The translations under genes and the position numbers were made by a program. From NCBI GenBank assembly GCA_045593685.1, contig JAZNXD010000027.1, positions 29,569 to 93,568 of the forward strand: a stretch of 64,000 nt of DNA. Direction: 5' to 3'. The notes beneath the pieces were generated by a model that ran no database searches, had not been told where the DNA came from, and was given only the letters and a program-made list of their open reading frames with translations. The stretch is from Candidatus Enterousia sp. GTDB taxonomy: Bacteria; Pseudomonadota; Alphaproteobacteria; Rs-D84. This document shows positions 8,864 to 62,416 of the stretch, piece by piece. Positions within the stretch are counted from its first letter, which is position 1, and each line of letters starts with the position of its first letter.

Positions 8864-9964
8864 TTAGGCGACCTTTTTCATATCGGATTTTATTTGACGG
8901 ACGTATTTGCGCAGTTCGTCAATCGGAACCAATGTGCCATCACGTTTTTGGGCAGACCAATAATCCCACCCATTGTAACTGACACAGCGTTGAATTTTTG
9001 CCGCCATGACATGGATTGATGCGCGGCCGTATAATTGGTGGGTCAGGTTCCCGTCCTGGGTAATCATGACGCGTTCGCCACGTGGGCTGACCAATGTTTG
9101 GCCAACGTACAACAGACCAGATTCGATTAATTCGCGGAACGCAACACGGATTTCGTCGCGTTTTGGTTTTGTAACCTCGATATCGGTCAGGTCGATTGGT
9201 GTTATGTTTTCAATGCGTGCACGTGCGGCGTTAACATATTCGGGTTCGCGTTCAATTCCGATAAATTGACGGCCCAATTCGCGCGCTGCCGCCGCCGTGG
9301 TGCCCGATCCCATAAATGGATCCAGGATAACGTCGCCCGGTTTTGTCGATGCCAAAATAACACGGTGTAGTAAATCCAATGGCTTTTGGGTGTTGTGCAG
9401 ACTTTTGCCGTTGGCACCCTTGATACGTTCTTCGCCCAGGCATATGTTCAAATCCCAATCCGAACGCATTTGTTTGCCACCATTTAATTTTTTCATGGTT
9501 TCGTAATTAAATGTATATTTGCCGGTCTTGGTCGGTGTGGCCCAAATTAATGTTTCATGTGCGTTGGTAAAACGTGTGCCACGAAAGTTTGGCATTGGAT
9601 TGGTCTTGACCCAGACAATATCATTTAAAATCCAAAAACCCATGTCCTGTAAGATTGAACCAACGCGAAAGATGTTATGATAACTGCCGATTGTCCACAT
9701 GGCGCCATTTGGTTTTAAAACACGTTTGCATTCGGCCAGCCAACGACGTGTAAATTCATCATACTCTGCGTTGGATGAAAATGCGTCCCATTCGTCGCGA
9801 ACCGCGCGTGCCGCCGTTTGATCTTCGGGGCGATATAATGTCTTGGCCCCCAGTTGCAAATTGTATGGTGGGTCTGCAAAAACAGCATCAACCGAACCGT
9901 CGGGAATCCCGCGCATTAATTCCAGGCAATCCCCCAGTAAAATTTGGTTCAGGTATTTGTTCAT
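8864..9964 (-). CDS. ccrM: CcrM-like N6-adenine DNA methyltransferase (beta class)
   Basis: ILLGDCLELM...VDAVFADPPYNLQL is motif IV as in CcrM, with C-terminal FMGSGTTAAAA as motif I. I chose ATG 9964 (MNKYLNQ). Confidence 0.8.
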   Translation of the reverse strand: MNKYLNQILLGDCLELMRGIPDGSVDAVFADPPYNLQLGAKTLYRPEDQTAARAVRDEWDAFSSNAEYDEFTRRWLAECKRVLKPNGAMWTIGSYHNIFRVGSILQDMGFWILNDIVWVKTNPMPNFRGTRFTNAHETLIWATPTKTGKYTFNYETMKKLNGGKQMRSDWDLNICLGEERIKGANGKSLHNTQKPLDLLHRVILASTKPGDVILDPFMGSGTTAAAARELGRQFIGIEREPEYVNAARARIENITPIDLTDIEVTKPKRDEIRVAFRELIESGLLYVGQTLVSPRGERVMITQDGNLTHQLYGRASIHVMAAKIQRCVSYNGWDYWSAQKRDGTLVPIDELRKYVRQIKSDMKKVA

Positions 9965-10135
9965 CTCTCTGTTTTCCCCCGTTAATGTATATTTTATCAC
10001 ATTTCGGGCGATAAAAATTTTGATGGGGGGACATTATTTTTAAATAAAGCGCTTGATTTTTTATAAAAATGCATTTTTGCAAAAAAATAAAATTACTTGC
10101 GCAAAGATGATTTGATTGCTACCGTATTGGGTACT

Positions 10136-10636
10136 ATGAGATGTCCATATTGCAATTCAAGGGATAGCAGGGTTACAGATTCACGCCCGGATATAGAAGA
10201 TGCGATTATTCGCCGTCGGCGGGTTTGTGAACAGTGTGGCGCCAAATTTACGACCGTTGAACGCGTGCAAATGCGCGATTTGATGGTGCGTAAAAATAGT
10301 GGCAAGTTAGAGGCTTTTGATCGTGAAAAATTGCGCCGCAGTATTAAATTGGCATGCAGAAACAGAGATGTGGGGGATGAACAAATTGAAAAATTGGTGA
10401 CGTCTATTCATCGCAGATTGGAAACTGAAACCCCGGATGATACGGTGACCAGTGTCCAGGTCGGTCAGATGGTGTCGGATTCTTTGCTGAATTTGGATCC
10501 GATTGCATTTGTGCGTTTTTCTTCGGTGTATCGCAAGTTTTCGCGTATTTCGGATTTTAAGAAGATTATTGCACAAATACCCGAAGATGATGAAGGCGCG
10601 GTTGTGTGTAAATTACCAAAAACGTCATTGTTCTGA
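10136..10636 (+). CDS. nrdR: Transcriptional repressor NrdR
   Basis: MRCPYCNSRDSRVTDSR...RRRRVCEQCGAKFTTVERV is the zinc ribbon, followed by an ATP-cone. Confidence 0.9.
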   Translation: MRCPYCNSRDSRVTDSRPDIEDAIIRRRRVCEQCGAKFTTVERVQMRDLMVRKNSGKLEAFDREKLRRSIKLACRNRDVGDEQIEKLVTSIHRRLETETPDDTVTSVQVGQMVSDSLLNLDPIAFVRFSSVYRKFSRISDFKKIIAQIPEDDEGAVVCKLPKTSLF

Positions 10637-10649
10637 AGTATTTAATAAT

Positions 10650-12374
10650 ATGAAGAAATTTATTTCCTTTTTTATAGGTTTGTTTTTGCCGCTGAATTTG
10701 TTGGCGGTGGATTTGCCACAGATTCTGACCGATGTGGATGCCAGTCTGTATGAACAAATTTTTATGCTGCAGGACAGGGAAAAGATTGATACCGCCATCA
10801 AGGTGGAAAATCAGATTGCGGATAAATTGCTGATGAACGAAGTTTTGTATCAGCGATATATTTCCGATACATATCGTACGCGCGGGGCGGAAATTGCGGC
10901 GTGGATGGAAAAATATTCCGATATGCCGGGCGCGGTGCGTATGGAAAAATTGGCAAAAATAAAGCAGGCCTCGGTCCGCAGGGCGCGTGTGCCAAATATT
11001 ATGACGGCGGCAGAACCGATTGAAACGGCCCAATCTGAAACATGGACGGCAAAAAAATATTCGGGGTCGACGGATAAAAAGATTAATGAGTTCAAGCGTG
11101 CCATTCGAACCGGATCAACCAAAATTGCGCGTCAGATACTAGAAGATAAAAAGTTCCGTAAAAAAATAAGCGAATCGGATTATGGACGTTTGGCGGGGCG
11201 TCTGTCGTATATATACTATACAAATGGTGAAATGGAATTGGCGAAAAAATGGGGCTTTGTTGCATCCGATGCGAATTCCGAGTATGGATTGTGGGCAATG
11301 GGTTTGCTGTATTTCAAAGAAGAAAATTATGCAGAATCGCAAAAGTATTTCAGTCGTATCTTGGATTTGCCACAGATTAATAATGCACGCAAGACCGAGG
11401 CCGCCTTTTGGGCCGGACGTGCCGCGGATTTTGCCGGAAAACGTGATGTGGCGAAAAAGTATTGGCGAATCGCGGCCACATATCCGATGGCCTTCTATGG
11501 GGCGTTGTCGGCGACCATGTTGGGGCAAAAACCGGAATATGAATTCTTTGAAAGTCAGGCGACGGATGAAGACTATGCGGAATTGGCAGAAACAAAATAT
11601 GGACGTATGGCGTTGGCATTGATTCAGGTCGGGCGCAAGGACAGGGCCGAAGAATATCTGAAATATTTAATTACGCCCAAGGCAACGGACCGAGTTTTGC
11701 ATGCGGTAAATTCTGTGGCGACCGAATTTAATATGGCGCGCCTGTCGGTACAATCGGCCAGTGTTATCAAAGACAGGGGAATCTTGGAAATTGATGACGA
11801 TATTATTTATTCGGCCCAGTATCCTTTGCCTGATTGGGAACCGTTGGGTGGGTGGTCTATTGATCGGGCGCTGTTGTTGGCGATTACCAAACAGGAAAGT
11901 AATTTCCGGGTGTCCGCAAAATCGGGGGCGGGCGCAAATGGGGTTATGCAATTAATGCCCAGTACCGCAAAACGTGTCGCACGTGCAAATAAGGTGGACC
12001 TGTCACAGATGGATATGTCAAACCCGGAACATAATATGTTTTTGGGACAACAATATATTGTGGATTTGTTGTCACATGACCGGGTGGAAAACAGCATTAT
12101 AAAAATGTTGGCGGCATATAACGCGGGTATGGGTACAATGGTAAAGTTTGAAAAGACCTTTTATACATACGACCCATTGTTGTATATCGAAAGTTTTCCG
12201 GCATACGAAACGCGCAGTTATATCAAACGCGTGATGTCGAATTTGTGGCTGTATCGTGCGCGATTGAATCAGCCGCTGACGTCCATGGAAGAATTGGCAA
12301 ATGGTAATTGGCCATTGTACAACAGTGAAGATGAATATGTACAACAACAGATATTGGAACGCATGACGATTTAA
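10650..12374 (+). CDS. Soluble lytic murein transglycosylase (Slt70-like)
   Basis: Signal peptide MKKFISFFIGLFLPLNLLAV, a helical repeat N-domain, and the catalytic SLT motif AITKQESNFR...GVMQLMPSTA. I chose start 10650 so it does not overlap nrdR. Confidence 0.85.
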   Translation: MKKFISFFIGLFLPLNLLAVDLPQILTDVDASLYEQIFMLQDREKIDTAIKVENQIADKLLMNEVLYQRYISDTYRTRGAEIAAWMEKYSDMPGAVRMEKLAKIKQASVRRARVPNIMTAAEPIETAQSETWTAKKYSGSTDKKINEFKRAIRTGSTKIARQILEDKKFRKKISESDYGRLAGRLSYIYYTNGEMELAKKWGFVASDANSEYGLWAMGLLYFKEENYAESQKYFSRILDLPQINNARKTEAAFWAGRAADFAGKRDVAKKYWRIAATYPMAFYGALSATMLGQKPEYEFFESQATDEDYAELAETKYGRMALALIQVGRKDRAEEYLKYLITPKATDRVLHAVNSVATEFNMARLSVQSASVIKDRGILEIDDDIIYSAQYPLPDWEPLGGWSIDRALLLAITKQESNFRVSAKSGAGANGVMQLMPSTAKRVARANKVDLSQMDMSNPEHNMFLGQQYIVDLLSHDRVENSIIKMLAAYNAGMGTMVKFEKTFYTYDPLLYIESFPAYETRSYIKRVMSNLWLYRARLNQPLTSMEELANGNWPLYNSEDEYVQQQILERMTI

Positions 12375-12684: not shown

Positions 12685-12793
12685 AAGAAATCAAGTAGAA
12701 ATAGTATGTTTTTTCTATTGATTATTAAAAATAATGTGGTATGAATAATCCCATAGGGAAGTGGAATTTAATCTTACTTAGAAAGGAGTGGCT

Positions 12794-15700
12794 ATGTCCA
12801 ACAATAAACACTTTGCGGATTTGTTAAAGGTCTGCAGTATTTTGCCAGCCTTGGCGATTATGCCGGCGATGGCAGGCGAGAATATTGTAACTGGTGATGC
12901 ATCTTTATCGTATCAGGATGTTAAAATATCACATACGACAGCGGGGACAGATGATGCACTGGGGGTGAATGCACAGGGCAAGGCAACAATTGATTTTACT
13001 GGTGATATAACAAATATCGCTGTTAATGCAGAAGGAAATCCGAAATATAGTGCGGCGGTCTTTAACTATAACGGCAAGGGGACGGTGTTAAACTTTAATA
13101 CGGATAAGATAATCTTGTCCGCAACGGGATCAAGTAATTCTGTACTGGGGGTTCGTGTAAATGGCGATGGAGATGTTGTTAATTTAAATGGTGAAACAGA
13201 AATTAATGTATCGTCAGACTCGACAGCAATGTTGCGTGCGATTGATGTAACGGATGGCGGGTATGTTTCGTTGAATGATGACACAGTATTGAATTTAACA
13301 GGTGGTAAAGACGCAGCGGAAACTATTGGTATTTTATCCAGTGGTTCAAAAAGTGTAGATTTGGCCCAGGGCAAAGATTTAGCAATAAATGCATCTGGTG
13401 TGCGCGAGGTTTATGGTTTATATGCCCAATATGGTGGCACAATCAATATGGCCCAGGATACCGAAGTAGATATTCATTCAACCGCAACAGGCGGTGATGC
13501 GTATGGTGTTGTCAGTGGTTTTTATGCAGGAGCTGCGGGAACTATTGACAGCAAGGGTGAAATAGATATAGATGTTAGTGGCGATAATGCGTATGGGCTG
13601 TGGAATTTTGGTGGGTCATCTACACATATCGCGGATTTAGATATTGTTGCCACAGCCCAGCAAATAGCCAGAGGTATCTGGGTAACAGATGACAAGGTGG
13701 TGGATGAGAGCAAGGCCGAAACAACAGATGTTGTTATTGGCTCAGAGGGTTCAAAGACTAAAATCATTGCAAAGGGTGCTGATACAACAAATACCGCCGG
13801 CGTTTTGGCAGAAAAGTTAGAAAAAGATGTTGGATTAACAATCCTGGGGGATGTTGATATTGAATCTGATGGTTACGGGGTGTTAGCAAAAGGTGGTGCC
13901 GTTGCCAATATTGGTACAGAATATGCAAAAGAAATCAAAATTCTATCGGAATCGGGCAGAGCATTACGTGCTGAATATGGGGCTGTTTTGAATGTTGGGA
14001 ATGTAGATACAGAATCTGTTGATATTTCTACAAAAGATAACTATGCCATTATGGCTGTGTATGCTGATACTGTAGTTGATATAAAAGGTAAAAATATTGA
14101 TGTTTCCACAAGTGGTGACAAATATATGGCGGCATATGCAGGGCTTGCTGGTACTTTGAATATTGGTACAGAAGATACAGAAAATATTAATTTGTCTGCG
14201 ACTGATTATTCTGCAGTACAAGTATTAGAAGATGAATCCAAAATGGATATTACTGGAAAAAACATCGTTATTTCCAATAATGCAAACACTTGGGGTGCGG
14301 TTCATGTCGCAAATAAAACAGAGGATTCTGATTATGCGGATGTTGCGACGTTGGATATAAAGGGTGAAAATATCTTTATCAAAAACAGCGCGGAAAAGGG
14401 GGTTGGTGTTGCTGCAATGAGCCAGGGTGTTGTAAATATTGAAGGTAATACAACAATTCAGGCGCAAAAGGCCATTGCGGCACGTGGTGGCGCCAAAGTT
14501 AATGTTAATACATCTGGTGAAAATACTGTAAAGATGTTGGGTGATATTGACTTTGACTATGACAAGGCAACATCTGGTACCAGCATTGATGCATATATTG
14601 ATGTGACATTGGCGGGTGATGAGTCTTTCTGGACCGGGAATACTGTCGTGACTTATGACGAAAAGCCAGAAGCAGAAAAGTTAGCGGTTTCAAATGCTAA
14701 ACTGACTATGAAAGATGGTGCGGTTTGGAACGCAACAAAAATCACAGACAATAAAGCAGATGTTAAGGGGCGTTATTATACAGCGTTAAATGACCTGATT
14801 ATCAATGGTGGTACGGTAAATATCGCGGATACAACACGTGGTATCACGATTGATCGTATTGTTGCAAATGACGCGACGTTTACGGGCGGTATGCTGAACG
14901 TAAATGAAAGCATTGATATCGAATCCGGTGAAACGCTATTCAATGGCAACGTGACCGGGGCAGAGGGTGCCACACTGACATTGGCCAGTGGTGCAACCAT
15001 GGATATCGGTACATCTACGATCAAGTTTGATACAATGACACTTAATGGTACGGTTATTGCATCGGTTACAAATGGTCGTCCGTATGGTCATCTGTTTGGT
15101 GATATTACGGCCGGCGAAGATGCATTGTTGAAACTGAATGTCGGTTCGGTTGGTACATATAAAATCTTTAATGATGCAGATGCCAACATGAAAATTGACG
15201 CAGGTTTGGCATATGTTGTGACGAACAATGGTGCGGATGGTATCGTTGTTGAAACCAAATCAATCGAATCCTTGGCCGAAGATGCGGGGATTTCAACCCA
15301 GGCGGCCGGTGCAATCGCAGGTTTGACAATGACCCAGGATCCGGCACTGCAAAAGGTATCGTTGGCCGCACAACAGGCATTGAACAGTGGCGATGCATCA
15401 ATGATTGCAATGGTTGAACGCGAAACCAAAAAACTGAACCCAACGGATAAGCCGGTTGCCCAGGCGGCGGCAACATCTGTTCAGAACCAGGTTCTGTCAT
15501 TGGCGGCGGGCCGTATGTCGGGTGGTGCCGTTATGGGACGCGCCGGTGGTGATGAAATTGCCCAAGAAAATGGTTTCTGGGTCCAGGGATTGTTTAACAA
15601 GTCCAAATTCGCAGACGAATTCCATGGATATACACGTGGGGTTGCGCTGGGGGCGGATACAACAATCGATAAAACATGGACCGTTGGTGCGGGGTTGGCG

Positions 15701-16321
15701 TTTAATAATTCTGATGTTCATGCAGATGGTGTTCATACAGATATTGACAGCAAGACCCTGTTCGTATATGGCCAGTACAAACCAAGTAATTGGTTCGTAA
15801 ATGGTACCGCGACATATACAATGTCCGAATATACAGACAGTAAAACCGTGTTTGATGTTGTGTGGAACGATTCGTATGATGTTAATTCATATGGCGCGCA
15901 GGTTATGGGCGGATATGACTTTGCCGCCGGTATCACAACCGAAGCGGGTCTGCGTTATCTGCACATTGCCCAGGATGCAACCGGCTTTGCCCGGGCGCTG
16001 GATACGGACTTCCTGACGGGGGTTGCGGGTGTGAAATATGCGTTCGCAATTGAAAATGATTGGGCGATTAAACTGCGTCCGGAATTGCGTGCGGCATTGA
16101 CATATGATTGGTTGAATGATTCTGATGCAGCAATCGTTGATATGCCAGGTGTTGCAACTTATAAGGTTGATGGAGAGAACCTGAACCGTCTGGGCGCAGA
16201 ATTGGGGGCAGGTGTGACATTGGATTACAAAGGTCTGAAGGTCACATTGATGTATGATTTGGATTTGCACAAGGAATATACATCACAGACCGGTATGATT
16301 AAGTTCCGCAGTCGGTTCTGA
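12794..16321 (+). CDS. Autotransporter outer-membrane protein (large beta-helix passenger + beta-barrel)
   Basis: About 1175 aa with signal-like LPALAIMPAMAGE. The passenger is G/T/V/N/D-rich and repetitive. The C-terminal roughly 280 aa is an alternating amphipathic barrel ending ...MIKFRSRF. The SD aggag sits 6 nt before ATG 12794. Confidence 0.85.
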   Translation: MSNNKHFADLLKVCSILPALAIMPAMAGENIVTGDASLSYQDVKISHTTAGTDDALGVNAQGKATIDFTGDITNIAVNAEGNPKYSAAVFNYNGKGTVLNFNTDKIILSATGSSNSVLGVRVNGDGDVVNLNGETEINVSSDSTAMLRAIDVTDGGYVSLNDDTVLNLTGGKDAAETIGILSSGSKSVDLAQGKDLAINASGVREVYGLYAQYGGTINMAQDTEVDIHSTATGGDAYGVVSGFYAGAAGTIDSKGEIDIDVSGDNAYGLWNFGGSSTHIADLDIVATAQQIARGIWVTDDKVVDESKAETTDVVIGSEGSKTKIIAKGADTTNTAGVLAEKLEKDVGLTILGDVDIESDGYGVLAKGGAVANIGTEYAKEIKILSESGRALRAEYGAVLNVGNVDTESVDISTKDNYAIMAVYADTVVDIKGKNIDVSTSGDKYMAAYAGLAGTLNIGTEDTENINLSATDYSAVQVLEDESKMDITGKNIVISNNANTWGAVHVANKTEDSDYADVATLDIKGENIFIKNSAEKGVGVAAMSQGVVNIEGNTTIQAQKAIAARGGAKVNVNTSGENTVKMLGDIDFDYDKATSGTSIDAYIDVTLAGDESFWTGNTVVTYDEKPEAEKLAVSNAKLTMKDGAVWNATKITDNKADVKGRYYTALNDLIINGGTVNIADTTRGITIDRIVANDATFTGGMLNVNESIDIESGETLFNGNVTGAEGATLTLASGATMDIGTSTIKFDTMTLNGTVIASVTNGRPYGHLFGDITAGEDALLKLNVGSVGTYKIFNDADANMKIDAGLAYVVTNNGADGIVVETKSIESLAEDAGISTQAAGAIAGLTMTQDPALQKVSLAAQQALNSGDASMIAMVERETKKLNPTDKPVAQAAATSVQNQVLSLAAGRMSGGAVMGRAGGDEIAQENGFWVQGLFNKSKFADEFHGYTRGVALGADTTIDKTWTVGAGLAFNNSDVHADGVHTDIDSKTLFVYGQYKPSNWFVNGTATYTMSEYTDSKTVFDVVWNDSYDVNSYGAQVMGGYDFAAGITTEAGLRYLHIAQDATGFARALDTDFLTGVAGVKYAFAIENDWAIKLRPELRAALTYDWLNDSDAAIVDMPGVATYKVDGENLNRLGAELGAGVTLDYKGLKVTLMYDLDLHKEYTSQTGMIKFRSRF

Positions 16322-18845: not shown

Positions 18846-18966
18846 AAAACCTCCGTCTTGGGTGGCAACAACGCCACACACTATAAATATAGTACAAACG
18901 TTTGCTTTGTCAAGATAAAGGGCGCTTTTGTGGCTATGAAAAATCCCCCGTTTTTGGGGGATTGTC

Positions 18967-22266: not shown

Positions 22267-23416
22267 AAATTTGGATCTGCGTGGCAAGTATGTTTTGTTG
22301 CGTGATGACTTTAATGTGCAAATTGTGGACGGAAAAATTACGGATGCGTTTCGTATTGAACAAAGTATGCCGACAATAAATGCTTTGCGCAATGCGGGCG
22401 CACGAATTGCGATTGTGGCACATCGTGGCCGGCCCAAGGGTGTGCGTAATATGGAATATACTTTGCGCCCGATTGCGGAATATATGGGTGTGGAATTAAT
22501 ACCGGATTGTTTGGACCGGGACTTTATGCCGAATATGCGCGATGGGGATATTGTACTGTTGGAAAATGTGCGTTTTTATGCGGGTGAAGAAAAAAATGAT
22601 CCGGCCTTTGCGGCGGATTTGGCGCGTGGTTTTGATGTGTTTGTAAACGATGCCTTTGCCGTATCGCATCGCGCACATGCCAGTACCGTTGGCGTGGCGG
22701 AAATATTGCCGTCGTATGCGGGTGATTTGTTGGCATCGGAAATTGAACATTTGTCGGCGGTTATGGAAAATCCGGCGCGTCCTTTGTTGTCAATCGTCGC
22801 CGGCAGCAAGGTTTCAACAAAAATTGGTGTGTTAAAGGCTTTGGCGCGGTTGTCAGATACGCTGATTATTGGTGGGGCGTTGGGTACAACTTTTAACTAT
22901 GCGCAGGGTGGGCGTGTTGGAAATTCGCTGTATGAAGCCGACCAGAAGGATACCGCATTGGAAATCTTGGATTTTGCCGAAAAGAATAATTGCCGGGTAT
23001 TGTTGCCTTTGGACAAGGGGGTGGCCAAGGAATTTGCTCGTGATGCCGTGCGTATGAACAAGGACTTTACCGAAATAGAAGATGATGATGTAATTATCGA
23101 TGCCGGAATTCAAACAACCGCGCGTGATGTTGCAGAAATTCGTAATGCCAAAACGGTTATTTGGAACGGCACGGTTGGTATGGCCGAGTGGCAACCAACA
23201 TGGTCGTATGGTTCGTTTGCGATTGCCAATGCGATTGCCGAACAAACACGCGCCGGTAAATTGGAAAGTATTATTGGGGGCGGGGATACCGTTGCCGCAT
23301 TAGAGGCGTGCGGTGTCAAAGATGATATAACCTATGTTTCAACCGGGGGTGGGGCCTTCCTTGAATTTATCGAAGGGCGGATATTGCCCGGTGTCGCAAT
23401 ACTGGAAGACAAGTAA
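22247..23416 (+). CDS. pgk: Phosphoglycerate kinase
   Basis: LRDDFNV...IVAHRGRPKG...NVRFYAGEEKND...GGGDT are canonical PGK blocks. It overlaps rnhB by 20 nt. Confidence 0.95.
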   Translation: MNLRTIKNLDLRGKYVLLRDDFNVQIVDGKITDAFRIEQSMPTINALRNAGARIAIVAHRGRPKGVRNMEYTLRPIAEYMGVELIPDCLDRDFMPNMRDGDIVLLENVRFYAGEEKNDPAFAADLARGFDVFVNDAFAVSHRAHASTVGVAEILPSYAGDLLASEIEHLSAVMENPARPLLSIVAGSKVSTKIGVLKALARLSDTLIIGGALGTTFNYAQGGRVGNSLYEADQKDTALEILDFAEKNNCRVLLPLDKGVAKEFARDAVRMNKDFTEIEDDDVIIDAGIQTTARDVAEIRNAKTVIWNGTVGMAEWQPTWSYGSFAIANAIAEQTRAGKLESIIGGGDTVAALEACGVKDDITYVSTGGGAFLEFIEGRILPGVAILEDK

Positions 23417-23442
23417 AAAAATCCCCCGGTTGGGGGATTTTT
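23415..23442 (+). terminator. Intrinsic terminator after pgk (ATCCCCC-GGTT-GGGGGAT family)
   Basis: AAAAAAATCCCCCGGTTGGGGGATTTTT lies immediately after the pgk stop. Confidence 0.7.
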
Positions 23443-25632: not shown

Positions 25633-25660
25633 AAAAAATCCCCCGTATAGGGGATTTTTT
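25633..25660. terminator. Bidirectional terminator (ATCCCC-CGTATA-GGGGAT)
   Basis: Hairpin with A- and T-runs between the convergent 24436-25611 and 25659-26063 genes. Confidence 0.65.
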
Positions 25661-26063: not shown

Positions 26064-26190
26064 AATTCAATCTCCTTTGGTTAGTGTTCTTATAACGACC
26101 CAACACTATTTATATAGTACAAAAAAAATAAAAGTCAAGGAATAGACGTTAAAAAAATCCCCCGATTGGGGGATTTTTGTGGGAAGGGAT

Positions 26191-40333: not shown

Positions 40334-41218
40334 ATGTTTGTAACGGAAAAATTAAAGACATTCTCGTGGGTTAATGTTGGAAATCCCGATCACGAGGATT
40401 TTGAAAAACTGCAAACTGAATATAAAATTGATGAAGATACTATTTCGGATATTTTGGATCCGGATGAACAGCCACGCCTGGAAATCGAAGACGATTACAA
40501 GGTTATTATTGTGCGCTTTCCAATTATTAATCGTGAAACAGATACTTTGTGGCACACGGAACCATTGTCTATTATTTATACGTCCAGTCGTGTTATTACA
40601 GTATGCAGAAAAAGGTGCGATTTGCTGGACAGAATAAAGAAATCTGAAAAGACTTCGCGTGAAGAATTTATTTTGAATATTATGTACTATATCGCGGAAT
40701 CTTATCTGCGTATGTTAAAGGAATTGAACAAGCGTGTTTTGGCGTCAAAACGTGTTTTGCTGGAACGTATCCGTAAAAAAGAATTAATGGATTTGTTAGA
40801 AGTTGAAAACAGTTATACGTTGTATATGGCGGGTATTCGTGGAAATGTGGCCGTGTTGGATAAATTGGAAAAAGTCCGCGGGTTTGTAAAAACCGACGAT
40901 GCCCAGGAATTGGCCGAAGATGCACGAATCGAATTGGCCCAGGCGACCGAGGTTGTGACTTCGTACAGCAAGATGTTAAAGTCGATTAAGGAAACGTTTG
41001 AAAGTGTGATTAATATGGATTCCAATACCAATATTAATCGTTTGACAATGTGGAATATTATCTTGGTCGTACCGACGGTTATTGTTGGATACTATGGGAT
41101 GAATATGAAGTTACCTTTTGCAGAACATGATGAAACCGCAATCGCAATATTTCTGTTTATTATGATTTTGCTGATGGGGTTTGCGTTGTTTGGGGCAATT
41201 CGCCGACGTATTGTCTAG
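40334..41218 (+). CDS. corA: CorA-family magnesium/cobalt transporter
   Basis: The C-terminal two TMs carry the YGMN signature (VIVGYYGMNMKLPF). The SD aaaggagga precedes ATG 40334. Confidence 0.8.
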   Translation: MFVTEKLKTFSWVNVGNPDHEDFEKLQTEYKIDEDTISDILDPDEQPRLEIEDDYKVIIVRFPIINRETDTLWHTEPLSIIYTSSRVITVCRKRCDLLDRIKKSEKTSREEFILNIMYYIAESYLRMLKELNKRVLASKRVLLERIRKKELMDLLEVENSYTLYMAGIRGNVAVLDKLEKVRGFVKTDDAQELAEDARIELAQATEVVTSYSKMLKSIKETFESVINMDSNTNINRLTMWNIILVVPTVIVGYYGMNMKLPFAEHDETAIAIFLFIMILLMGFALFGAIRRRIV

Positions 41219-41312
41219 GGCTGGGCAAAGAATCCTGTGAGATTTATGTTGATATTTGATATACTGATATTTAGAATTAATATTGTTAACAATAAAACCA
41301 AAAGGGGAAAAC

Positions 41313-41714
41313 ATGAAGATTTTTTCTGCAATTCTTTTAACCAGTGTTTTTGCAATGGGGGCCGCATCGGCGGAGTTCGTGGAACCTGTGCATGAAGAAG
41401 CAAAACCGGTCGCAACAACAAAAGCGAACCCCAAGGGCGGATTCGTGGGTGGTGCGGAAACCATCGTTACAGTTAAACAGGTAAATGAAATGCGTGATGA
41501 TGTGCCTGTTATTGTCAAGGGCCATATTGTTCAACGTATGGGGGACGAAAAGTATCTGTTCGAAGATTCGACCGGGTCCATAACAGTTGAAATTGATGAT
41601 GATAATTGGCGTGGTCAAACGGTTACACCGACCGATACCGTTAAATTGTACGGCGATGTGGATCGTGGTATCTTTAAAACAGAAATTGAAATAGATTATG
41701 TTGAAAAGATTTAA
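41313..41714 (+). CDS. YgiW/YdeI-family periplasmic OB-fold (BOF) protein
   Basis: Signal peptide MKIFSAILLTSVFAMGAASA, then TVKQVNEMRDDVPVIVKGHIVQRMGDEKYLFEDSTGSITVEIDDDNW, which is typical of the family. Confidence 0.75.
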   Translation: MKIFSAILLTSVFAMGAASAEFVEPVHEEAKPVATTKANPKGGFVGGAETIVTVKQVNEMRDDVPVIVKGHIVQRMGDEKYLFEDSTGSITVEIDDDNWRGQTVTPTDTVKLYGDVDRGIFKTEIEIDYVEKI

Positions 41715-41767
41715 TAAATCCCCCATGTGGGGATTTTTTTGGGGGAAAATATAAGAACACAAACCTG

Positions 41768-41795
41768 TTGACAAAAGAATTTTGTGTGTTATTAT
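41768..41795 (+). promoter_or_regulatory. Strong sigma70 promoter with an extended -10, in front of the 90-aa peptide gene
   Basis: TTGACA (41768-41773), 16-nt spacer ending TGT, TATTAT (41790-41795). Confidence 0.55.
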
Positions 41796-41829
41796 TGTGC
41801 CCGGTTAAATAAAAACAAAAGGATTTATT

Positions 41830-42102
41830 ATGTCTTTGGTATGTGATATGTGTGCCCATTTGGGTAAAGAAGCCGGCAAGCCCTGTACTTTTTCGGGGAA
41901 TTGCATTGTAAATACGTATAATTTACATGGTACGGGGTCATTTGAAAAATTTATGACACCTGTATCCCAGGAAGTTGAGGCAGAAGAGGTAGTAACAGAA
42001 GAAATTGCACCGGCAGAAGTTGCGCCGGCTGTGGTTGCCTTTAATCCGTTCCAGCGTGGAAATGGTTGCCTGTTGGAAGATATGAACGTGCATACCCGCT
42101 AA
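41830..42102 (+). CDS. 90-aa Cys-containing acidic peptide (candidate RiPP precursor or rSAM partner)
   Basis: MSLVCDMCAHLGKEAGKPCTFSGNC..., then an E/V/A-rich linker, then ...NPFQRGNGCLLEDMNVHTR. It has SD-like aaaagga and a double stop TAATAA. Confidence 0.55.
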   Translation: MSLVCDMCAHLGKEAGKPCTFSGNCIVNTYNLHGTGSFEKFMTPVSQEVEAEEVVTEEIAPAEVAPAVVAFNPFQRGNGCLLEDMNVHTR

Positions 42103-42123
42103 TAATTTGTGTATGTTTGATGT

Positions 42124-42145
42124 AAAATCCCCGTTTGGGGATTTT
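42124..42145 (+). terminator. Attenuator-like hairpin between the peptide gene and the radical SAM gene
   Basis: AAAATCCCC-GTTT-GGGGATTTT uses the same stem family as the bona fide terminators. It has only 4 T and abuts ATG 42146. Confidence 0.5.
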
Positions 42146-43228
42146 ATGTTTAGGTTGGGAAAGTTACAAATGTGCCAAGAAGATTTTGTTTCTTTGGAAG
42201 ATTTTGCGGATTATGCCGCAGCCGCCGTTTACGACAATCAGAATTATGAAATTGATTTGCAATTCTATTTGACGCGTCGTTGTAATTTGTCGTGTGATGG
42301 GTGTTATATGTCTGCGTCACCAGGTGCATCCGGGGACAGATTGCCCGGGCATGATATTGCGTTTTATTTAAATGAATTCCAAAAAGAGCCGCAGTTTACC
42401 CATAATGTTGTGTTTTCTGGGGGCGAAATTTTTACAGCGCCGATTTCATATCTGGAATATAATATAAATCGTGTTTTGGCACATGATTGTGCGCTGCAAT
42501 TAAAAACAAATGGTTCGTGGATTCAAGATGAAAATACACGTGAAGCAGTGCTGGGGATGTTGCGGCGATTAAAGCCTGGGCGCGGATTAATGGCCGGCAC
42601 ACAGCAGGTGGAAACATTTTTGGCCAACAAACCCCGTTGGTTGTTGCGTTTGTTGGGGCGCGATGTTGTGCGTCGATGGTTATATTGGAAATTACCGACG
42701 GTGTCTTTGTTGAGTATGGCTGTATCGGTTGATGATAAATTGCACCCAAAAAAATCTGCCCAATGGTTTTTGGATATTGTCAATAGTTTCGCAGAAGATA
42801 CGCGATTGAAGCAAAGTATTGATTTGAAAACTTTTACTGTGTCCGGGTCTAAGGCTTTTTTTGGGAAAAATGTACTGAACCGTCCGGGATGTGTCCTGGA
42901 AGATAAAAAGGCCGATAAAAATTTGTTAAAGTACACTTTAAATGGGGTACCGGTTGAATCTTATTTTGGGGATTTTGTTGATGTTAATCAGATAACGCAC
43001 CGGGAAAAATTGGAAAATTTTGTTTTGCCAGCGTTGGGGAATGCGCGGGGACGTTTGGTATATTGCTTTTACCCGGATAAAACGGTTGGTTTGAATTCGT
43101 GCTATTTACAATCTGTGGGGCGTGTGCCGTACACAGGGCGTGATGGGGCACCCAAAAGTTTTGATGCGATTCGTCATGATATTTTGGTCCAGTTGGTGTT
43201 GGATTATCAGCGTGCGATTAGTAAATAA
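42146..43228 (+). CDS. Radical SAM enzyme (no SPASM-type Cys cluster evident)
   Basis: FYLTRRCNLSCDGCYM is the CxxxCxxC motif, and VVFSGGEIF is a GGE-type SAM motif. I chose the start after the hairpin, but ATG 42170 is also possible. Confidence 0.8.
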   Translation: MFRLGKLQMCQEDFVSLEDFADYAAAAVYDNQNYEIDLQFYLTRRCNLSCDGCYMSASPGASGDRLPGHDIAFYLNEFQKEPQFTHNVVFSGGEIFTAPISYLEYNINRVLAHDCALQLKTNGSWIQDENTREAVLGMLRRLKPGRGLMAGTQQVETFLANKPRWLLRLLGRDVVRRWLYWKLPTVSLLSMAVSVDDKLHPKKSAQWFLDIVNSFAEDTRLKQSIDLKTFTVSGSKAFFGKNVLNRPGCVLEDKKADKNLLKYTLNGVPVESYFGDFVDVNQITHREKLENFVLPALGNARGRLVYCFYPDKTVGLNSCYLQSVGRVPYTGRDGAPKSFDAIRHDILVQLVLDYQRAISK

Positions 43229-43295
43229 AATTTTTTGTGTTTCTTGCATAGCACGCAAATGCGTGCTATTATTTTTCTGATAAAAGGGTATCATT

Positions 43296-44519
43296 ATGCA
43301 AAATGAATTATTGGTTGAATTGCAGGCGCGCGGTTTTATTAACCAAACGTCAAATTTAGATGGATTGAACGATGCGTTAAATGCGGGAAAAATTACGGCA
43401 TATTTGGGGTCTGATCCGACGGCGGATTCTTTGCATGTTGGGCATTTGGTGCCGGTTATGATGATGCGTTGGTTGCAAAAGTATGGTCATAAACCAATTA
43501 CTTTGGTTGGTGGTGCAACGGGGCGCATTGGTGACCCATCTGGGCGCGATTCGGGACGACCAATGATGACCGAAGAAACGTTGGCAAAAAATGTAGCGGG
43601 GTTGAAAAAATCTTTTTCAAAATTCTTTAAGTTTGGTGATGGGGCATCTGATGCAATTATGGTTGATAACTATGATTGGATGAAAAATTACAGTCATTTG
43701 GACTTTTTGCGTGATTTTGGTACAGATTTTACGGTGCCGCGTATGTTGTCAATGGATTCGGTGAAACGGCGACTGGATAACGGTATGACGTTCTTGGAAT
43801 TTAATTATATGACTTTCCAGGCGGTGGACTTTTTGGCATTGTATCGCGAACATAATTGCATATTGCAGACATGTGGGGCCGATCAATGGGGTAATGCCAT
43901 TATGGGAATAGAATTAATCCGTAAAAAGTTGGGCAAAGAGGCGTTTGTATTGTCTACGTCCCTGATAACGGATGCAAATGGTAATAAAATTGGTAAGTCC
44001 GCCGGGAACGCGGTTTGGGTTAACGAAGACAAGACAAGTCCATATGAATATTATCAATATTTCCGCAATATTTCGGACGATTTGGTGGAAAAATTCTTGA
44101 AAATCTTTACGGAAATTCCATTGGATGAAATTGCGCGTCTGTCGGCGTTGCAGGGTGCAGAATTGAACGAGGCAAAGAAAATTTTGGCGTTTGCGGCAAC
44201 CGAAATTGCGCACGGACATGATGCGGCGGTTGTGGCCCAGGAAACGGCAAATGCACTGTTTGGTGGTGGGATAAATACGGATAATATGCCAACGGTTGAA
44301 ATTCAGCCCAGATGTGAAGAAGTAAGTTTGCTGGAATTGATTACAGAGGTTGGATTGGTCGAATCTAAGTCCGAGGGGCGTCGACTGATACAACAGGGTG
44401 GATTGAAATTGGATGGAAGGAAGGCAGAGGGTACAGAACGCTTTGAATTAGGGGGGCAACCATTTGATGTCGTATTGCAAAAGGGTAAAAAAGTATTCCT
44501 GAGGGTTGTCAGAAAATAA
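43296..44519 (+). CDS. tyrS: Tyrosine--tRNA ligase
   Basis: HIGH-type HVGHLVP, KMSKS-type KIGKSAGN, and a C-terminal S4 domain. Confidence 0.95.
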   Translation: MQNELLVELQARGFINQTSNLDGLNDALNAGKITAYLGSDPTADSLHVGHLVPVMMMRWLQKYGHKPITLVGGATGRIGDPSGRDSGRPMMTEETLAKNVAGLKKSFSKFFKFGDGASDAIMVDNYDWMKNYSHLDFLRDFGTDFTVPRMLSMDSVKRRLDNGMTFLEFNYMTFQAVDFLALYREHNCILQTCGADQWGNAIMGIELIRKKLGKEAFVLSTSLITDANGNKIGKSAGNAVWVNEDKTSPYEYYQYFRNISDDLVEKFLKIFTEIPLDEIARLSALQGAELNEAKKILAFAATEIAHGHDAAVVAQETANALFGGGINTDNMPTVEIQPRCEEVSLLELITEVGLVESKSEGRRLIQQGGLKLDGRKAEGTERFELGGQPFDVVLQKGKKVFLRVVRK

Positions 44520-45615: not shown

Positions 45616-45870
45616 TTATTTCTGTTTTTGGTTATCCAGGGTGGCTGCTTTGGCAATGTCTTGTACTTTTTTCCTGGAAAATAATTTTTTAATTTTATCA
45701 ATTCCGTTTAAAAACGAATCGATTATGTCTTTTTTTTCTATCCATTCCTCTTCGCGAATGCGTGAATACTCGGCTTTTTCTTGGTCATATTTTTTTAGGC
45801 GTTCTTCCATCGTTGTCCCTGGGACTTCGATGTTTGGATCGGTGATGATTGGACGTTGTTTTTTTGCCAT
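45616..45870 (-). CDS. Small charged protein (84 aa), hypothetical
   Basis: It lies 16 nt downstream of the VirB11-like gene on the same strand. K/E-rich, with no TM helix. Confidence 0.45.
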   Translation of the reverse strand: MAKKQRPIITDPNIEVPGTTMEERLKKYDQEKAEYSRIREEEWIEKKDIIDSFLNGIDKIKKLFSRKKVQDIAKAATLDNQKQK

Positions 45871-45886: not shown

Positions 45887-46846
45887 TTAAACTACTTCGG
45901 TTACGGCGCGCAAAGCACCATCGCGTGATAATTGCACAACGCGGATTTTCTTTTTCATTTCCGATATTAAATCGGAACGGTTGTATGCCGGTTGTGTGTG
46001 CAGGATACGGTCCGCAAAAGCGGCATATGCGGCATCCGCGCTTTCTGCATGAATTGTTGTATAAAAGTGATCGTGCCCGGTCCCCAACATTTCCCACAGT
46101 ATGGATGCGTTGTCGGTTGATATTTCCCCGCCGATAATAACATCCGGCGTCATTCGCACAACCAGGTCCAATAAACGCGCATAGTTAAAATTGTTGGATT
46201 GTTCCGTACGCGACAGTACAAAATGCACGCGATTAGCCTGGGGGACACGAATTTCACGGGCGTCTTCGACCGTTATAACACGACTGTTTTTATCAATCAG
46301 TGTCAGCATGTGGTTTAAAAATGTTGTTTTTCCGGTTGCGGTTGCGCCCGATATTAAAATAGGGCTGCCATCATTAATTGCAGACATTAATCGATCGTAT
46401 GGATCGTCGGGACGAATATTTTCGCGTGGTTTTACACGCATCAATTTTTGTCCGCGCTTAAGGTGATAGTTTTCAAAACTGGTATCATGGGCGCCACCGC
46501 CACGAATATTTAGTGCAACGCCACCGGTGATATCGCGTTCGTCGTATTGAACATTTGGACCCGCGATTGCGGTAAAACGATGATTGCCGGGCAGGGTTGC
46601 ATACACAACCGGGATGCCATGAATTGGGTCAAATGGACGTTCATAGATGTTTGCAACCGTGTGTATCAGGTCAACCAAATATTGTTTGCTTAATATTTCC
46701 GCATTATAAGAAACCCATGGAACACGTGCCCCGTGCAGGCGCATCCAAACTTCGCCCGCGTGGTTGATGGCAATTTCTTCTACAAACGATGGTTTATAGA
46801 ATTCTTCCAGTGGTTTTAGCAAAGATTCCAGTACTACATTTGACAT
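45887..46846 (-). CDS. VirB11/TrbB-family secretion ATPase (orphan)
   Basis: VEEIAINHAGEVWM is the N-domain, Walker A is ILISGATATGKTT, followed by ITVEDAREI, the Asp box PDVIIGGEI and the His box GTGHDHFYTTIHAES. The start is ambiguous (46846 ATG or 46882 TTG). Confidence 0.75.
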   Translation of the reverse strand: MSNVVLESLLKPLEEFYKPSFVEEIAINHAGEVWMRLHGARVPWVSYNAEILSKQYLVDLIHTVANIYERPFDPIHGIPVVYATLPGNHRFTAIAGPNVQYDERDITGGVALNIRGGGAHDTSFENYHLKRGQKLMRVKPRENIRPDDPYDRLMSAINDGSPILISGATATGKTTFLNHMLTLIDKNSRVITVEDAREIRVPQANRVHFVLSRTEQSNNFNYARLLDLVVRMTPDVIIGGEISTDNASILWEMLGTGHDHFYTTIHAESADAAYAAFADRILHTQPAYNRSDLISEMKKKIRVVQLSRDGALRAVTEVV

Positions 46847-46924
46847 CAAGGCAATTTTACCATAAATCGTGACTTGAATCAAAAATGTTTATTTGTTAAA
46901 ATCAAAAAAAAGAGAGAAAAAGAT

Positions 46925-47509: not shown

Positions 47510-47842
47510 ATGAAGAAAGTAGCATCTATTATGGGAATTTGTGCAATGTTGGGATTGGCGGGTTGTGGCGAAAAAACACAGGTCGCAGAAAATGGTGATA
47601 CGGTTGTTATCAACTTTGCGGGATATTTGGATGGTGTTCAGTTCCCGGGTGGTACGGCCGAAAACTTTCCTTTAAAATTGGGCAGTGGTCAGTTTGTGCC
47701 GGGCTTTGAAGAACAGGTTGTCGGTATGAGTGAAGGTGAAGAACGTGATATCAATATCACTTTCCCAACAGAATATGTGCCGGAATTGGCGGGTAAATCT
47801 GTTGTGTTCAAAGTAAAAGTTGTTGATATCGTAGAAGAATAA
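47510..47842 (+). CDS. FKBP-type peptidyl-prolyl isomerase lipoprotein
   Basis: Lipobox [48 protein letters not shown] is a trigger-factor/FKBP-type PPIase block. Confidence 0.8.
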
Positions 47843-47944
47843 TTTTTGCATGAAAAACGGGGCGCCCCGATTGGGGCGCTTTTTTATTGTTTTCGTATAT
47901 GGTTTTAGATACAATGGCGGTGTGTAAATATAGGGGTGTGTATT

Positions 47945-48256
47945 ATGGCGATGATTTATTGTCGTGATTGTGGTGCAAAACATTCGGATCGGGCGCGTGC
48001 GTGTCCAAAGTGTGGGCGGGCATTTGGTATGGATAAGTCCGCGTTGGTTTATGCGTTGTTGGCGTTCTTTTTGGGTATGTTTGGTGTGCATAAGTTTTAT
48101 GCCGGACAAAATGGCCAGGGGATTGCGATGCTTATAATGGGGACGATTGGATGGATTTTTATTATCCCTGGGATTGTTGTGTGTATATGGGCATTTGTTG
48201 ATTTTATTATCGGTTTGGTAAATATTAACAGTCCAGAAAAGATTTTTGTAAAATAA
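47945..48256 (+). CDS. Zinc-ribbon + TM2 domain membrane protein
   Basis: CRDCGAKHSDRARACPKCG, then ALLAFFLGMFGVHKFYAGQ...AFVDFI, which is the TM2 signature. Confidence 0.75.
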   Translation: MAMIYCRDCGAKHSDRARACPKCGRAFGMDKSALVYALLAFFLGMFGVHKFYAGQNGQGIAMLIMGTIGWIFIIPGIVVCIWAFVDFIIGLVNINSPEKIFVK

Positions 48257-48382
48257 AAAAGTCCCCTTATGGGGATTTTTTTTTATTTACTGCCCGACAC
48301 AAAAAAAGAGTTTTGTGTCGTTTTTTGTTGCGTATATTTTTTTCTGATGTATCATTGCCGATGTATAAAAAGGTGTATAAAA

Positions 48383-48721
48383 ATGCCAGAGCATGATTGG
48401 GCCAGAAAATGGGGACGCGAAAAAGAGTTTAGGCGCCAGGAAAATGAGAGCCTGGGCTTGGTTTTTTGTATGATTTTTGGGCCGTTGATTTTTGTTGCCA
48501 CGTGTTGTGGACTTAATGATTACGCGCATACGGTGTCGGGGGGGTGTGGTTGCGTTAATGTTCGTTCGGCCAATGGTGTGAAAAAAGACGCGAAGGTTGC
48601 GGCGCCGGATACAGGAACTGTTTCTTATGATGAATATGTGCGTGCAAATGCGCGTCGTTTACAGTTACAACGACAAATCGATTCGTTGCAAAACGAAAAA
48701 CGGTTGTTGAATACAAAATAA
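48383..48721 (+). CDS. Hypothetical membrane protein (112 aa)
   Basis: I moved the start downstream of the preceding terminator, which the track ORF start overlapped. It has one TM helix and a C-terminal coiled segment. Confidence 0.4.
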   Translation: MPEHDWARKWGREKEFRRQENESLGLVFCMIFGPLIFVATCCGLNDYAHTVSGGCGCVNVRSANGVKKDAKVAAPDTGTVSYDEYVRANARRLQLQRQIDSLQNEKRLLNTK

Positions 48722-62390: not shown

Positions 62391-62416
62391 GAAATCCCCC
62401 GGTTGGGGGATTTTTT
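62391..62416. terminator. Terminator of typA (ATCCCCC-GGTT-GGGGGAT family), next to the carD terminator at 62361-62388
   Basis: GAAATCCCCCGGTTGGGGGATTTTTT overlaps the typA stop. The adjacent hairpin AACCGTCCA-TTT-TGGACGGTT plus a T-run serves carD. Confidence 0.65.

Follow-up and report, generated by a model that had tools for sequence, protein, structure and literature searches.

The closest described counterpart of the locus studied here is the epipeptide system of Bacillus subtilis, in which the radical S-adenosylmethionine (SAM) enzyme EpeE (YydG) is found beside the small peptide EpeX (YydF). EpeE carries an auxiliary [4Fe-4S] cluster in a T-SPASM (extended twitch) domain and uses Cys223 as its hydrogen-atom donor (PMC13012085). 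Epipeptides are restricted to Bacillota, and their operon, epeXEPAB, also encodes a peptidase and an ABC transporter. A second point of reference is SCIFF (CteA/CteB) of Clostridia, a two-gene cassette of a highly conserved, cysteine-containing small protein and a radical SAM enzyme; the distribution of this cassette over an entire taxon speaks against its being an antibiotic (PMC8326336). Here, we describe a locus in a 64,000-nucleotide stretch of DNA from Candidatus Enterousia sp. (assembly GCA_045593685.1, contig JAZNXD010000027.1, positions 29,569 to 93,568 of the forward strand), hereafter called the window. It comprises a gene for a small protein of 90 amino acids (aa) followed by a gene for a radical SAM enzyme, and we tentatively propose that the two form a lineage-specific enzyme/substrate pair. 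The original prediction, made from the sequence, had singled out this locus as a candidate system for a ribosomally made peptide with post-translational modifications (RiPP), with an attenuator between the two genes.

Two further groups of systems bear on the comparison. In mycofactocin (MftA/MftC) and PQQ (PqqA/PqqE) biosynthesis, the radical SAM enzyme acts on a small precursor whose C-terminal segment is invariant, and the product is intracellular and not an exported toxin. MftC and PqqE belong to the SPASM enzymes and depend on an RRE chaperone (MftB, PqqD) as well as on downstream tailoring enzymes; none of these is present at the window locus, and the tail motifs are unrelated. The activases of glycyl-radical proteins such as GrcA and NrdD resemble the present case in that a single-cluster radical SAM enzyme acts on a Gly-containing protein loop. 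NrdD has a four-Cys zinc site before its radical loop, and the glycyl-radical fingerprint reads R-V-x-G-[FWY]. The window tail, R-G-N-G-C, does not match this fingerprint, having Cys in the aromatic position, and the window enzyme lies outside the activase family.

The two genes and their principal motifs are as follows.

41830..42105, + strand: small-protein gene, 90 aa (reading frame 41830-42102), ending in the double stop TAATAA; supported by homologues and substitution ratios (dN/dS)
41842..41904, + strand: four-Cys N-terminal module C5-x2-C8-x10-C19-x5-C25, a candidate metal or Fe-S site
41959..42039, + strand: variable linker, residues about 44-70, acidic in the window protein; length and sequence not conserved
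42040..42069, + strand: tail motif FNPFQRGNGC, residues 71-80, a candidate modification or docking site
42170..43228, + strand: radical SAM gene, 352 aa, with alternative starts at ATG 42146 and TTG 42107; supported by homologues, AlphaFold and dN/dS
42281..42304, + strand: CNLSCDGC (CxxxCxxC), with C38/C42/C45 coordinating the radical SAM [4Fe-4S] cluster; no other Cys column is invariant in 50 family members
42419..42427, + strand: GGE, residues 84-86, SAM binding; invariant in the family

The small protein was found as the original prediction described it, with four early cysteines, an acidic linker and a double stop. Its cysteines are located at positions 5, 8, 19, 25 and 80, the linker is rich in E, V and A, and the protein ends in the tail NPFQRGNGCLLEDMNVHTR. 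Homologues were grouped into 82 clusters for the small protein and 64 for the radical SAM enzyme. A single-sequence search had returned 29 small-protein clusters, and a profile built from divergent members gave the 82. A single architecture was observed in 69 sequences, consisting of the four Cys, a variable linker, the tail and a short C-terminal segment that ends in Arg. Members are 61 to 99 aa long in total and have linkers of very different lengths, and each of the four N-terminal Cys is kept in at least 90% of the 69 members. In the tail, N72, F74, Q75, G77, G79 and C80 are invariant, and F71, P73, R76 and N78 are present in at least 90% of the same sequences. In 17 distinct DNA versions of this motif, synonymous variants occur at each of the ten codons, and the peptide is fixed save for one Pro-to-Gln change. 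The small open reading frame (ORF) is conserved, and, judged from these codons, the tail FNPFQRGNGC is maintained by selection at the protein level. The N-terminal four-Cys module is a putative metal-binding site.

Ratios of nonsynonymous to synonymous substitution (dN/dS), with the near-identical relative L001 as reference, were as follows.

Small gene, whole: 0.24
Small-gene linker, residues 46-70: 0.60
Small-gene tail, residues 71-90: 0.036
Radical SAM enzyme: 0.17
corA, ygiW, tyrS and M23: 0.02-0.07

The small gene and the radical SAM gene are therefore under purifying selection, yet they evolve several-fold faster than their housekeeping neighbours. Past the tail motif, two forms of the C-terminal segment were observed, a short form, GC[LM]L[AES]D..TR, to which the window protein belongs, and a long form, GC.LAGY[TS]..EI..H.R. 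These may be paralogous types, since the small protein of the close relative L073-L075 is only 38% identical to that of the window. In the comparison of L073-L075 with window positions 8867-12374 and 12788-16321, the methyltransferase-NrdR-SLT block is 87-91% identical at the amino-acid level. Beyond SLT, this relative has a long-tail small gene between two 242-aa ORFs, and the window has a 1177-aa ORF at that place.

The small protein had no match in Pfam, NCBIfam or PADLOC, and its profile gave nothing meaningful against PDB chains. It has no sequence similarity to EpeX/YydF. In the case of SCIFF (TIGR03973/TIGR03974), the small protein likewise had no NCBIfam match, and the SCIFF maturase was absent from the best 25 of the 31 NCBIfam matches of the window enzyme at E up to 1. 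The SCIFF peptide also differs in having six Cys within 45 residues and no long linker.

The radical SAM gene most likely starts at ATG 42170, which gives a protein of 352 aa, and not at ATG 42146 as first proposed. This placement is based on alignment, since the homologues begin there and the closest relative, L001, reads ATA at the position equivalent to 42146. The CNLSCDGC and GGE motifs named in the original prediction are both present, whereas the predicted length of about 360 aa and the count of four further cysteines need correction, the latter to five. GGE has an established SAM-binding role in radical SAM enzymes. The Pfam model Radical_SAM (PF04055) scores 22 bits against the window enzyme, under its gathering score of 29.5, and matches 49 of 50 family members at E up to 0.01. 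With its CxxxCxxC and GGE motifs and its partial TIM-barrel core, the enzyme is a member of the radical SAM superfamily.

The kinship to EpeE was observed by three routes, namely NCBIfam, the PDB profile search and the full-length fold. The best NCBIfam match was YydG/EpeE (TIGR04078), with 36.2 bits against a cut-off of 300 and over residues 41-141 only. YydG was also the best hit of the sequence profile against PDB (E = 7e-8), again limited to the N-terminal core; a PDB search with the C-terminal half of the enzyme gave no sequence relative. The AlphaFold model is confident (pLDDT 93, pTM 0.90). In Foldseek, the top nine matches were all EpeE/YydG chains, with E = 2e-11 to 3e-10, TM-scores of 0.45-0.53 and 327-352 aligned columns. 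They were followed by MoaA, then by the RiPP maturases SuiB, SkfB and CteB (5why), and many other radical SAM structures are among the matches. The enzyme is therefore EpeE-like in scaffold and outside the EpeE family. Its position outside the named subfamilies, as originally suggested, was confirmed. All matches to housekeeping radical SAM families fell far below their cut-offs (viperin 25 of 180 bits, NrdG 13 of 131), and QueE, MiaB, RimO, anSME and MoaA were absent from the best 25 of the 31 NCBIfam matches at E up to 1. The mycofactocin maturase was among the weak NCBIfam matches, and the pVip model of PADLOC matched at 24 bits. Distant radical SAM relatives from Terasakiella and Rhodospirillales were set aside as generic enzymes in a polysaccharide context, which proved uninformative.

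EpeE and the window enzyme share the lack of an RRE and the position beside a small ribosomally made protein; they differ in their cysteines. Models for SPASM, twitch and RRE/PqqD domains matched none of the 50 enzyme members, and no C-terminal Cys is conserved among them, so the absence of a SPASM cluster and of an RRE was upheld. Only 37 residues precede the first cluster Cys, and there the AlphaFold model has one helix and then a core strand. None of the five Cys beyond CxxxCxxC is invariant; the best, C299, is present in 76% of members and is otherwise replaced by F, Y or S. No invariant Cys outside C38/C42/C45 was thus available in the 50 members as a candidate ligand of an auxiliary [4Fe-4S] cluster or as a counterpart of Cys223 of EpeE. 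The SCIFF maturase differs in the same direction: it is of the SPASM type, has two auxiliary clusters and carries an RRE-type domain at its N terminus. The motif GC[LV]LED, noted earlier in both the peptide tail and the enzyme, proved to be a coincidence, as the enzyme stretch is not conserved among homologues.

Both families are confined to one lineage. Named or organism-labelled homologues of either protein come from metagenome-assembled genomes (MAGs) of uncultured gut Alphaproteobacteria or Candidatus Enterousia, the exceptions being a single contig binned as Muribaculaceae and a few homologues with the bare label "bacterium", and a scan of species-representative genomes placed the enzyme in Candidatus Enterousia and relatives. 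The order Rs-D84, which includes Candidatus Enterousia, has genomes mostly below 1 Mb (PMC12306168). An exhaustive search of the small-protein profile against 1.84 billion representatives returned genuine divergent members down to 63 aa and no genuine relative of another kind. A scan of viral contigs gave no relatives, and a metagenome scan returned one locus, whose contig has the length of that of L011. Both families are therefore orphans within a narrow gut clade. The literature yielded nothing on the tail motif, nor on radical SAM enzymes in Rs-D84.

The exhaustive search also returned multi-repeat proteins (P0100, P0110, P0112, P0114, P0117, P0123 and others), which were considered as a repeat family and rejected. 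Most of them have the look of CRISPR arrays read as protein, or of repetitive sequence that is probably eukaryotic. In P0110, a repeat protein, the motif bears only a likeness to the tail. P0112, P0114, P0123, P0126, P0131 and P0135 are CRISPR-array-like "proteins" of public collections, with repeat units FQSPFHRGNGCY or FKPHQRGGGCCS and chance scores against the tail-motif profile.

By Pfam and NCBIfam, corA and a YgiW/BOF-family gene lie upstream of the two genes in the window, and tyrS and an M23 peptidase gene lie downstream. The order ygiW-small-rSAM (radical SAM)-tyrS-M23 was observed in 10 distinct loci, some of them with enzymes just 47-48% identical to that of the window, and clpP-clpX or corA precedes the group wherever the locus extends that far upstream. 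A further case of adjacency was identified in L068/L069, a different lineage, where a distant radical SAM relative lies just downstream of the small gene and the neighbours are TfoX, TK and M48. This relative scores 44-47 bits at about 25% identity, and shares the motifs CxxxCxxC, GGE, KTNxSW, SVDxxH and PY.D.G..K of the group. A leader protease, exporter or immunity gene was found neither in the window nor in about 40 related loci examined, in agreement with the original prediction, and the peptidase and ABC transporter of the epipeptide operon are likewise missing at the window locus. The M23 gene after tyrS matched only the M23 peptidase model in Pfam and, faintly, DUF3450, and occupies the same place in loci without the small gene.

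The elements that govern expression of the two genes are listed below.

41768..41795, + strand: sigma-70-type promoter of the small gene, with -35 TTGACA at 41768-41773, a 16-nt spacer, TG at 41787-41788 and -10 TATTAT at 41790-41795
41818..41823, + strand: Shine-Dalgarno sequence AAAGGA of the small gene, read from the sequence
42124..42151, + strand: terminator-like hairpin AAAATCCCC-GTTT-GGGGATTTT then ATGTTT, with the stem-loop at 42124-42145, between the small gene and the radical SAM gene
42157..42163, + strand: probable Shine-Dalgarno sequence GGGAAAG of the radical SAM gene, 6 nt before ATG 42170, read from the sequence
43248..43269, + strand: terminator-like hairpin in the gap between the radical SAM gene and tyrS, found by the terminator scan, 9 pairs, then TATTTTTCTG

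The promoter of the small gene had been called the best in the window. With a score of 11/12 in the promoter scan and a TG extension it is indeed near consensus, but it is joint best, since ten other sites reach the same score; only two of the sites, this one included, have the TG extension. A TTGACAAA box and the extended -10 upstream of the small gene were kept in 13 of 13 loci, linked or unlinked, as was AAAGGA/AAGGA at a constant distance from the start. The hairpin after the small gene, equally, was found in part as described. It begins 21 nt past the second stop, has the stem of a family that recurs in the window, and is followed by four T; it does not abut the start of the enzyme, however, since with ATG 42170 as the start it is wholly intergenic and lies 24 nt upstream. 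The intergenic region folds with -23 kcal/mol (z-score -2.3). This hairpin is the weakest of the eight members of its family, with four G-C pairs against five and four T against five to seven, and is presumably a weak, leaky intrinsic terminator. An equivalent hairpin follows the small gene in 10 of 10 linked loci, and every small-gene locus checked has a terminator after the small gene. The 24-nt gap between hairpin and start leaves no space for a promoter of the enzyme's own, and the gaps of the other linked loci are similarly short. No riboswitch or leader was found by Rfam in 41200-43800.

Taken as an enzyme and its substrate, the two genes may be explained as follows. The steps of expression and of cluster and SAM binding draw on sequence and comparative evidence; the tail chemistry and the metal handle are what we infer. 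The small gene would be a transcription unit of its own, expressed strongly from its near-consensus promoter, furnished with a good ribosome-binding site and closed by a terminator. The linked enzyme would be made from a minority of read-through transcripts, because the weakened hairpin lies 24 nt before its start and leaves no promoter room, and the arrangement would yield much substrate and little enzyme. The enzyme is predicted to bind one [4Fe-4S] cluster through C38/C42/C45 and SAM through GGE, and, as with other members of its superfamily, a 5'-deoxyadenosyl radical would be formed. The flexible linker would then let the FNPFQRGNGC tail reach the EpeE-like domain at the C terminus, and one of the tail residues would there lose a hydrogen atom to the radical. 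Given that the enzyme lacks both an auxiliary cluster and an invariant Cys beyond CxxxCxxC, the radical would most likely be resolved with Cys80 of the substrate. The product could then have either an epimerised neighbouring residue or a small C-S (thioether) ring within the molecule. The four-Cys N-terminal module may serve as a metal-binding handle, and the modified protein would stay in the cell, since no locus has a protease or exporter. A classical secreted RiPP is unlikely, because protease, exporter and immunity genes are absent from every locus and the spread is order-wide in reduced genomes. The pair looks closer to housekeeping modification of a small protein, as in SCIFF and protein-derived cofactors, than to an exported natural product.

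A functional pair is favoured by the precursor-like layout of the small protein with its selected tail, by the promoter and terminator that the small gene keeps in the linked loci, and by the evolution of both genes at a faster rate than their housekeeping neighbours. It is favoured, too, by the confinement of both orphan families to the same narrow clade, the recurrent adjacency with two radical SAM subgroups in unrelated neighbourhoods and the peptide maturases among the closest relatives of the enzyme. The window enzyme, moreover, has no promoter of its own. These last four points also count against the main alternative, in which the genes are functionally unconnected and their adjacency is inherited. 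In that case, the small protein would be an independent, abundant metal-binding or regulatory protein and the enzyme would act on a different substrate (a metabolite, an RNA or another protein). The tail would then be a docking peptide for another partner, and the arrangement of domain, flexible linker and terminal peptide does resemble that of adaptors such as SspB. We judge this alternative unlikely, though by no means negligible.

Much of what favours independence comes from the loci themselves and weighs against an enzyme/substrate pair. In about 18 of 28 radical SAM loci, no small gene was present within 6-10 kb, so the expectation that the small ORF always lies upstream of the enzyme did not hold; the pair differs in this from SCIFF, being often unlinked. 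The constant neighbour of the enzyme is tyrS (as tyrS-M23) and not the small gene, and the upstream neighbour of unlinked copies varies (rplI, tsf, a small protein with two transmembrane segments, and others). Most unlinked copies follow the terminator of the upstream gene and have their own promoter-like site, with a perfect TTGACA -35 in six. The RiPP-type layout of promoter, terminator and enzyme is conserved in every linked locus, but the attenuator is not an obligatory design, because unlinked copies carry their own promoters. The small gene, for its part, always has its own promoter and, in every locus checked, a terminator. It was found without the enzyme in five contexts, among them after clpX, after an M23 peptidase gene, near SLT and by a P-type ATPase gene. 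In several relatives, it comes directly after clpX or one gene (ygiW) further, and its position differs even between genomes whose housekeeping proteins are 87-91% identical. In one sub-clade, there is an overlap of 7-11 nt between the enzyme start and the gene of another small membrane protein. As synteny within the clade is high in general, adjacency by itself carries little weight. The adjacency in L068/L069 must be read with two further facts, namely that the distant radical SAM gene there has its own promoter and that a conserved 43-aa ORF (MNPAPTNHFDLMIAIIEKKGSVLSPEQIAQYYNTLMNTIRQNH; L068:5305-5436, L069:3033-3164) lies directly after it, before a family-6 glycosyltransferase gene; this ORF could be the real partner of the distant enzyme. 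Co-occurrence in one genome without linkage was seen, among the cluster-member look-ups, only in MAG J6Q44 (enzyme J6Q44_00705, MBO5946649.1; small protein J6Q44_01305, MBO5946764.1). As J6Q44 carries both genes unlinked, an absent neighbour does not mean an absent gene, which is a point in favour of the pair. Two points on the proteins belong here as well. AlphaFold gave no confident fold for the small protein (pLDDT 53), whose model was left out of the fold search, and the known peptide cross-linking and EpeE-type radical SAM enzymes use an auxiliary cluster or an enzyme Cys, neither of which is invariant here.

An early impression that most genomes with the enzyme lack the small gene was dropped after the profile search gave 82 clusters. 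An inversion model for L063, with the small gene on the same contig as the enzyme, was abandoned when extension to 21 kb showed that the small gene is not there.

A second alternative, which we consider improbable and which the original prediction had raised in the form of a metal-binding partner, is that the small protein is a redox or metallocluster partner, whose four-Cys module reduces the radical SAM cluster or supplies an auxiliary cluster in trans and whose tail serves for docking. The four well-conserved Cys, the opposite charges of the acidic small protein (pI 4.7) and the basic enzyme (pI 8.0), and the lack in the enzyme of the auxiliary-cluster Cys that its nearest structural relative needs are consistent with such a role. 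The genomes are extremely reduced, and no other candidate reductant was seen in the loci examined. A weak match to LRV_FeS in Pfam (E = 0.002) points the same way, but it was obtained for only one of 30 small-protein members. The Cys spacing is unlike the standard ferredoxin or rubredoxin motifs, conservation in the small protein is highest in the tail and not at the Cys ligands, and the pairing would be left unexplained, since one would expect many enzymes to be served by an electron donor. A third alternative, a free-standing glycyl-radical carrier with the radical SAM enzyme as its activase, is very improbable: R76-G-N-G79 has the Arg-to-Gly spacing of the fingerprint, Gly77 and Gly79 are invariant beside the invariant Cys80, the enzyme has a single cluster like the PFL activase (rank 50 in the fold search), and the 4Fe-4S single-cluster model Fer4_12 of Pfam weakly matches a third of the enzyme family members, but the Gly is followed by that Cys and not by an aromatic residue, the small-protein profile found no GrcA, NrdD or PFL among PDB chains even at E = 10, the fold is far nearer to EpeE than to any activase, and no partner enzyme using such a radical was identified.

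To return to the enzyme/substrate pair, systems that combine a radical SAM enzyme and its cognate small protein are already known. The new elements would be the single-cluster EpeE-like enzyme, a precursor with a four-Cys module, the frequent unlinking and the retention in minimal genomes. Candidatus Enterousia and Rs-D84 have shed most of their biosynthetic capacity, yet they keep this abundant small protein and one to two orphan radical SAM enzymes. If functional, the pair would constitute a new radical SAM/small-protein family outside the SPASM and RRE frameworks of genome-mining tools, would reveal the capabilities of an EpeE-like scaffold that has no auxiliary cluster, and would point to a post-translationally modified protein relevant to a partner-dependent gut lifestyle. 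A bolder form of the proposal is a long shot. Here, the single-cluster enzyme would turn the FQRGNGC tail into a new modification that a protein carries inside the cell, be it a cross-link, a D-residue or a radical/redox site. The four-Cys module of the substrate would bind the metal or Fe-S centre that related enzymes have as their auxiliary cluster, and the protein would be an essential housekeeping factor kept across the order. Should the pair prove not to be functional, what remains is a strongly expressed and lineage-defining small-protein gene that lacks an explanation, and the locus cautions against deriving RiPP logic from conserved synteny.

Further observations were made on the related loci. 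In the sub-clade L006, L008, L018 and L020, the protein that overlaps the enzyme start is conserved, about 100 aa long, with several Cys and apparently two transmembrane segments, and the overlap suggests translational coupling of the enzyme to this different small protein. The J6Q44 enzyme is of the type of this sub-clade, and its FQRGNGC gene lies elsewhere. Additional distant orphan radical SAM subgroups were identified in Rs-D84 (L025-L031 and L034; L007:5604-6839; L068:4099-5187), with 23-30% identity. They share KTNxxW and S(V/L)DxxH, and most also have PY.D..G..K. Their genes are placed between pnp and gpsA, in tandem directly after the main-family enzyme (L007) or after the small gene (L068/L069).

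The hairpin family was observed throughout the window as eight near-identical palindromic hairpins, at 2716-2744, 18939-18963, 23415-23442, 25633-25660, 26151-26178, 41716-41740, 42124-42145 and 62392-62416. Their design comprises an A-run, TCCCC(C), a loop of 4-5 nt, (G)GGGGA and a T-run, and can be read as a terminator on both strands. This family appears to be the standard bidirectional terminator of the genome, and in related loci the small gene is followed by a hairpin of the same design.

The comparison with L001 revealed uneven local divergence. Between window positions 41800 and 42600, a stretch that takes in the small gene and the radical SAM gene's 5' half, nucleotide identity falls to 0.73-0.84, in a relative whose CorA, TyrS and M23 proteins are 99% identical. 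Synonymous divergence (dS) is 0.95 in the 5' half and 0.28 in the 3' half of the radical SAM gene, and 0.07-0.3 in corA, tyrS and M23. The divergent stretch, which extends across the boundary between the two genes, has the appearance of a recombination patch. At 47800-48400 of the window, some 600 bp lack a counterpart in L001, and an 84-aa minus-strand ORF at 45616-45870, by a VirB11/T2SSE-type ATPase gene (45887-46882), has a nucleotide identity to L001 of 0.67-0.81 in surroundings of 0.95-1.0.

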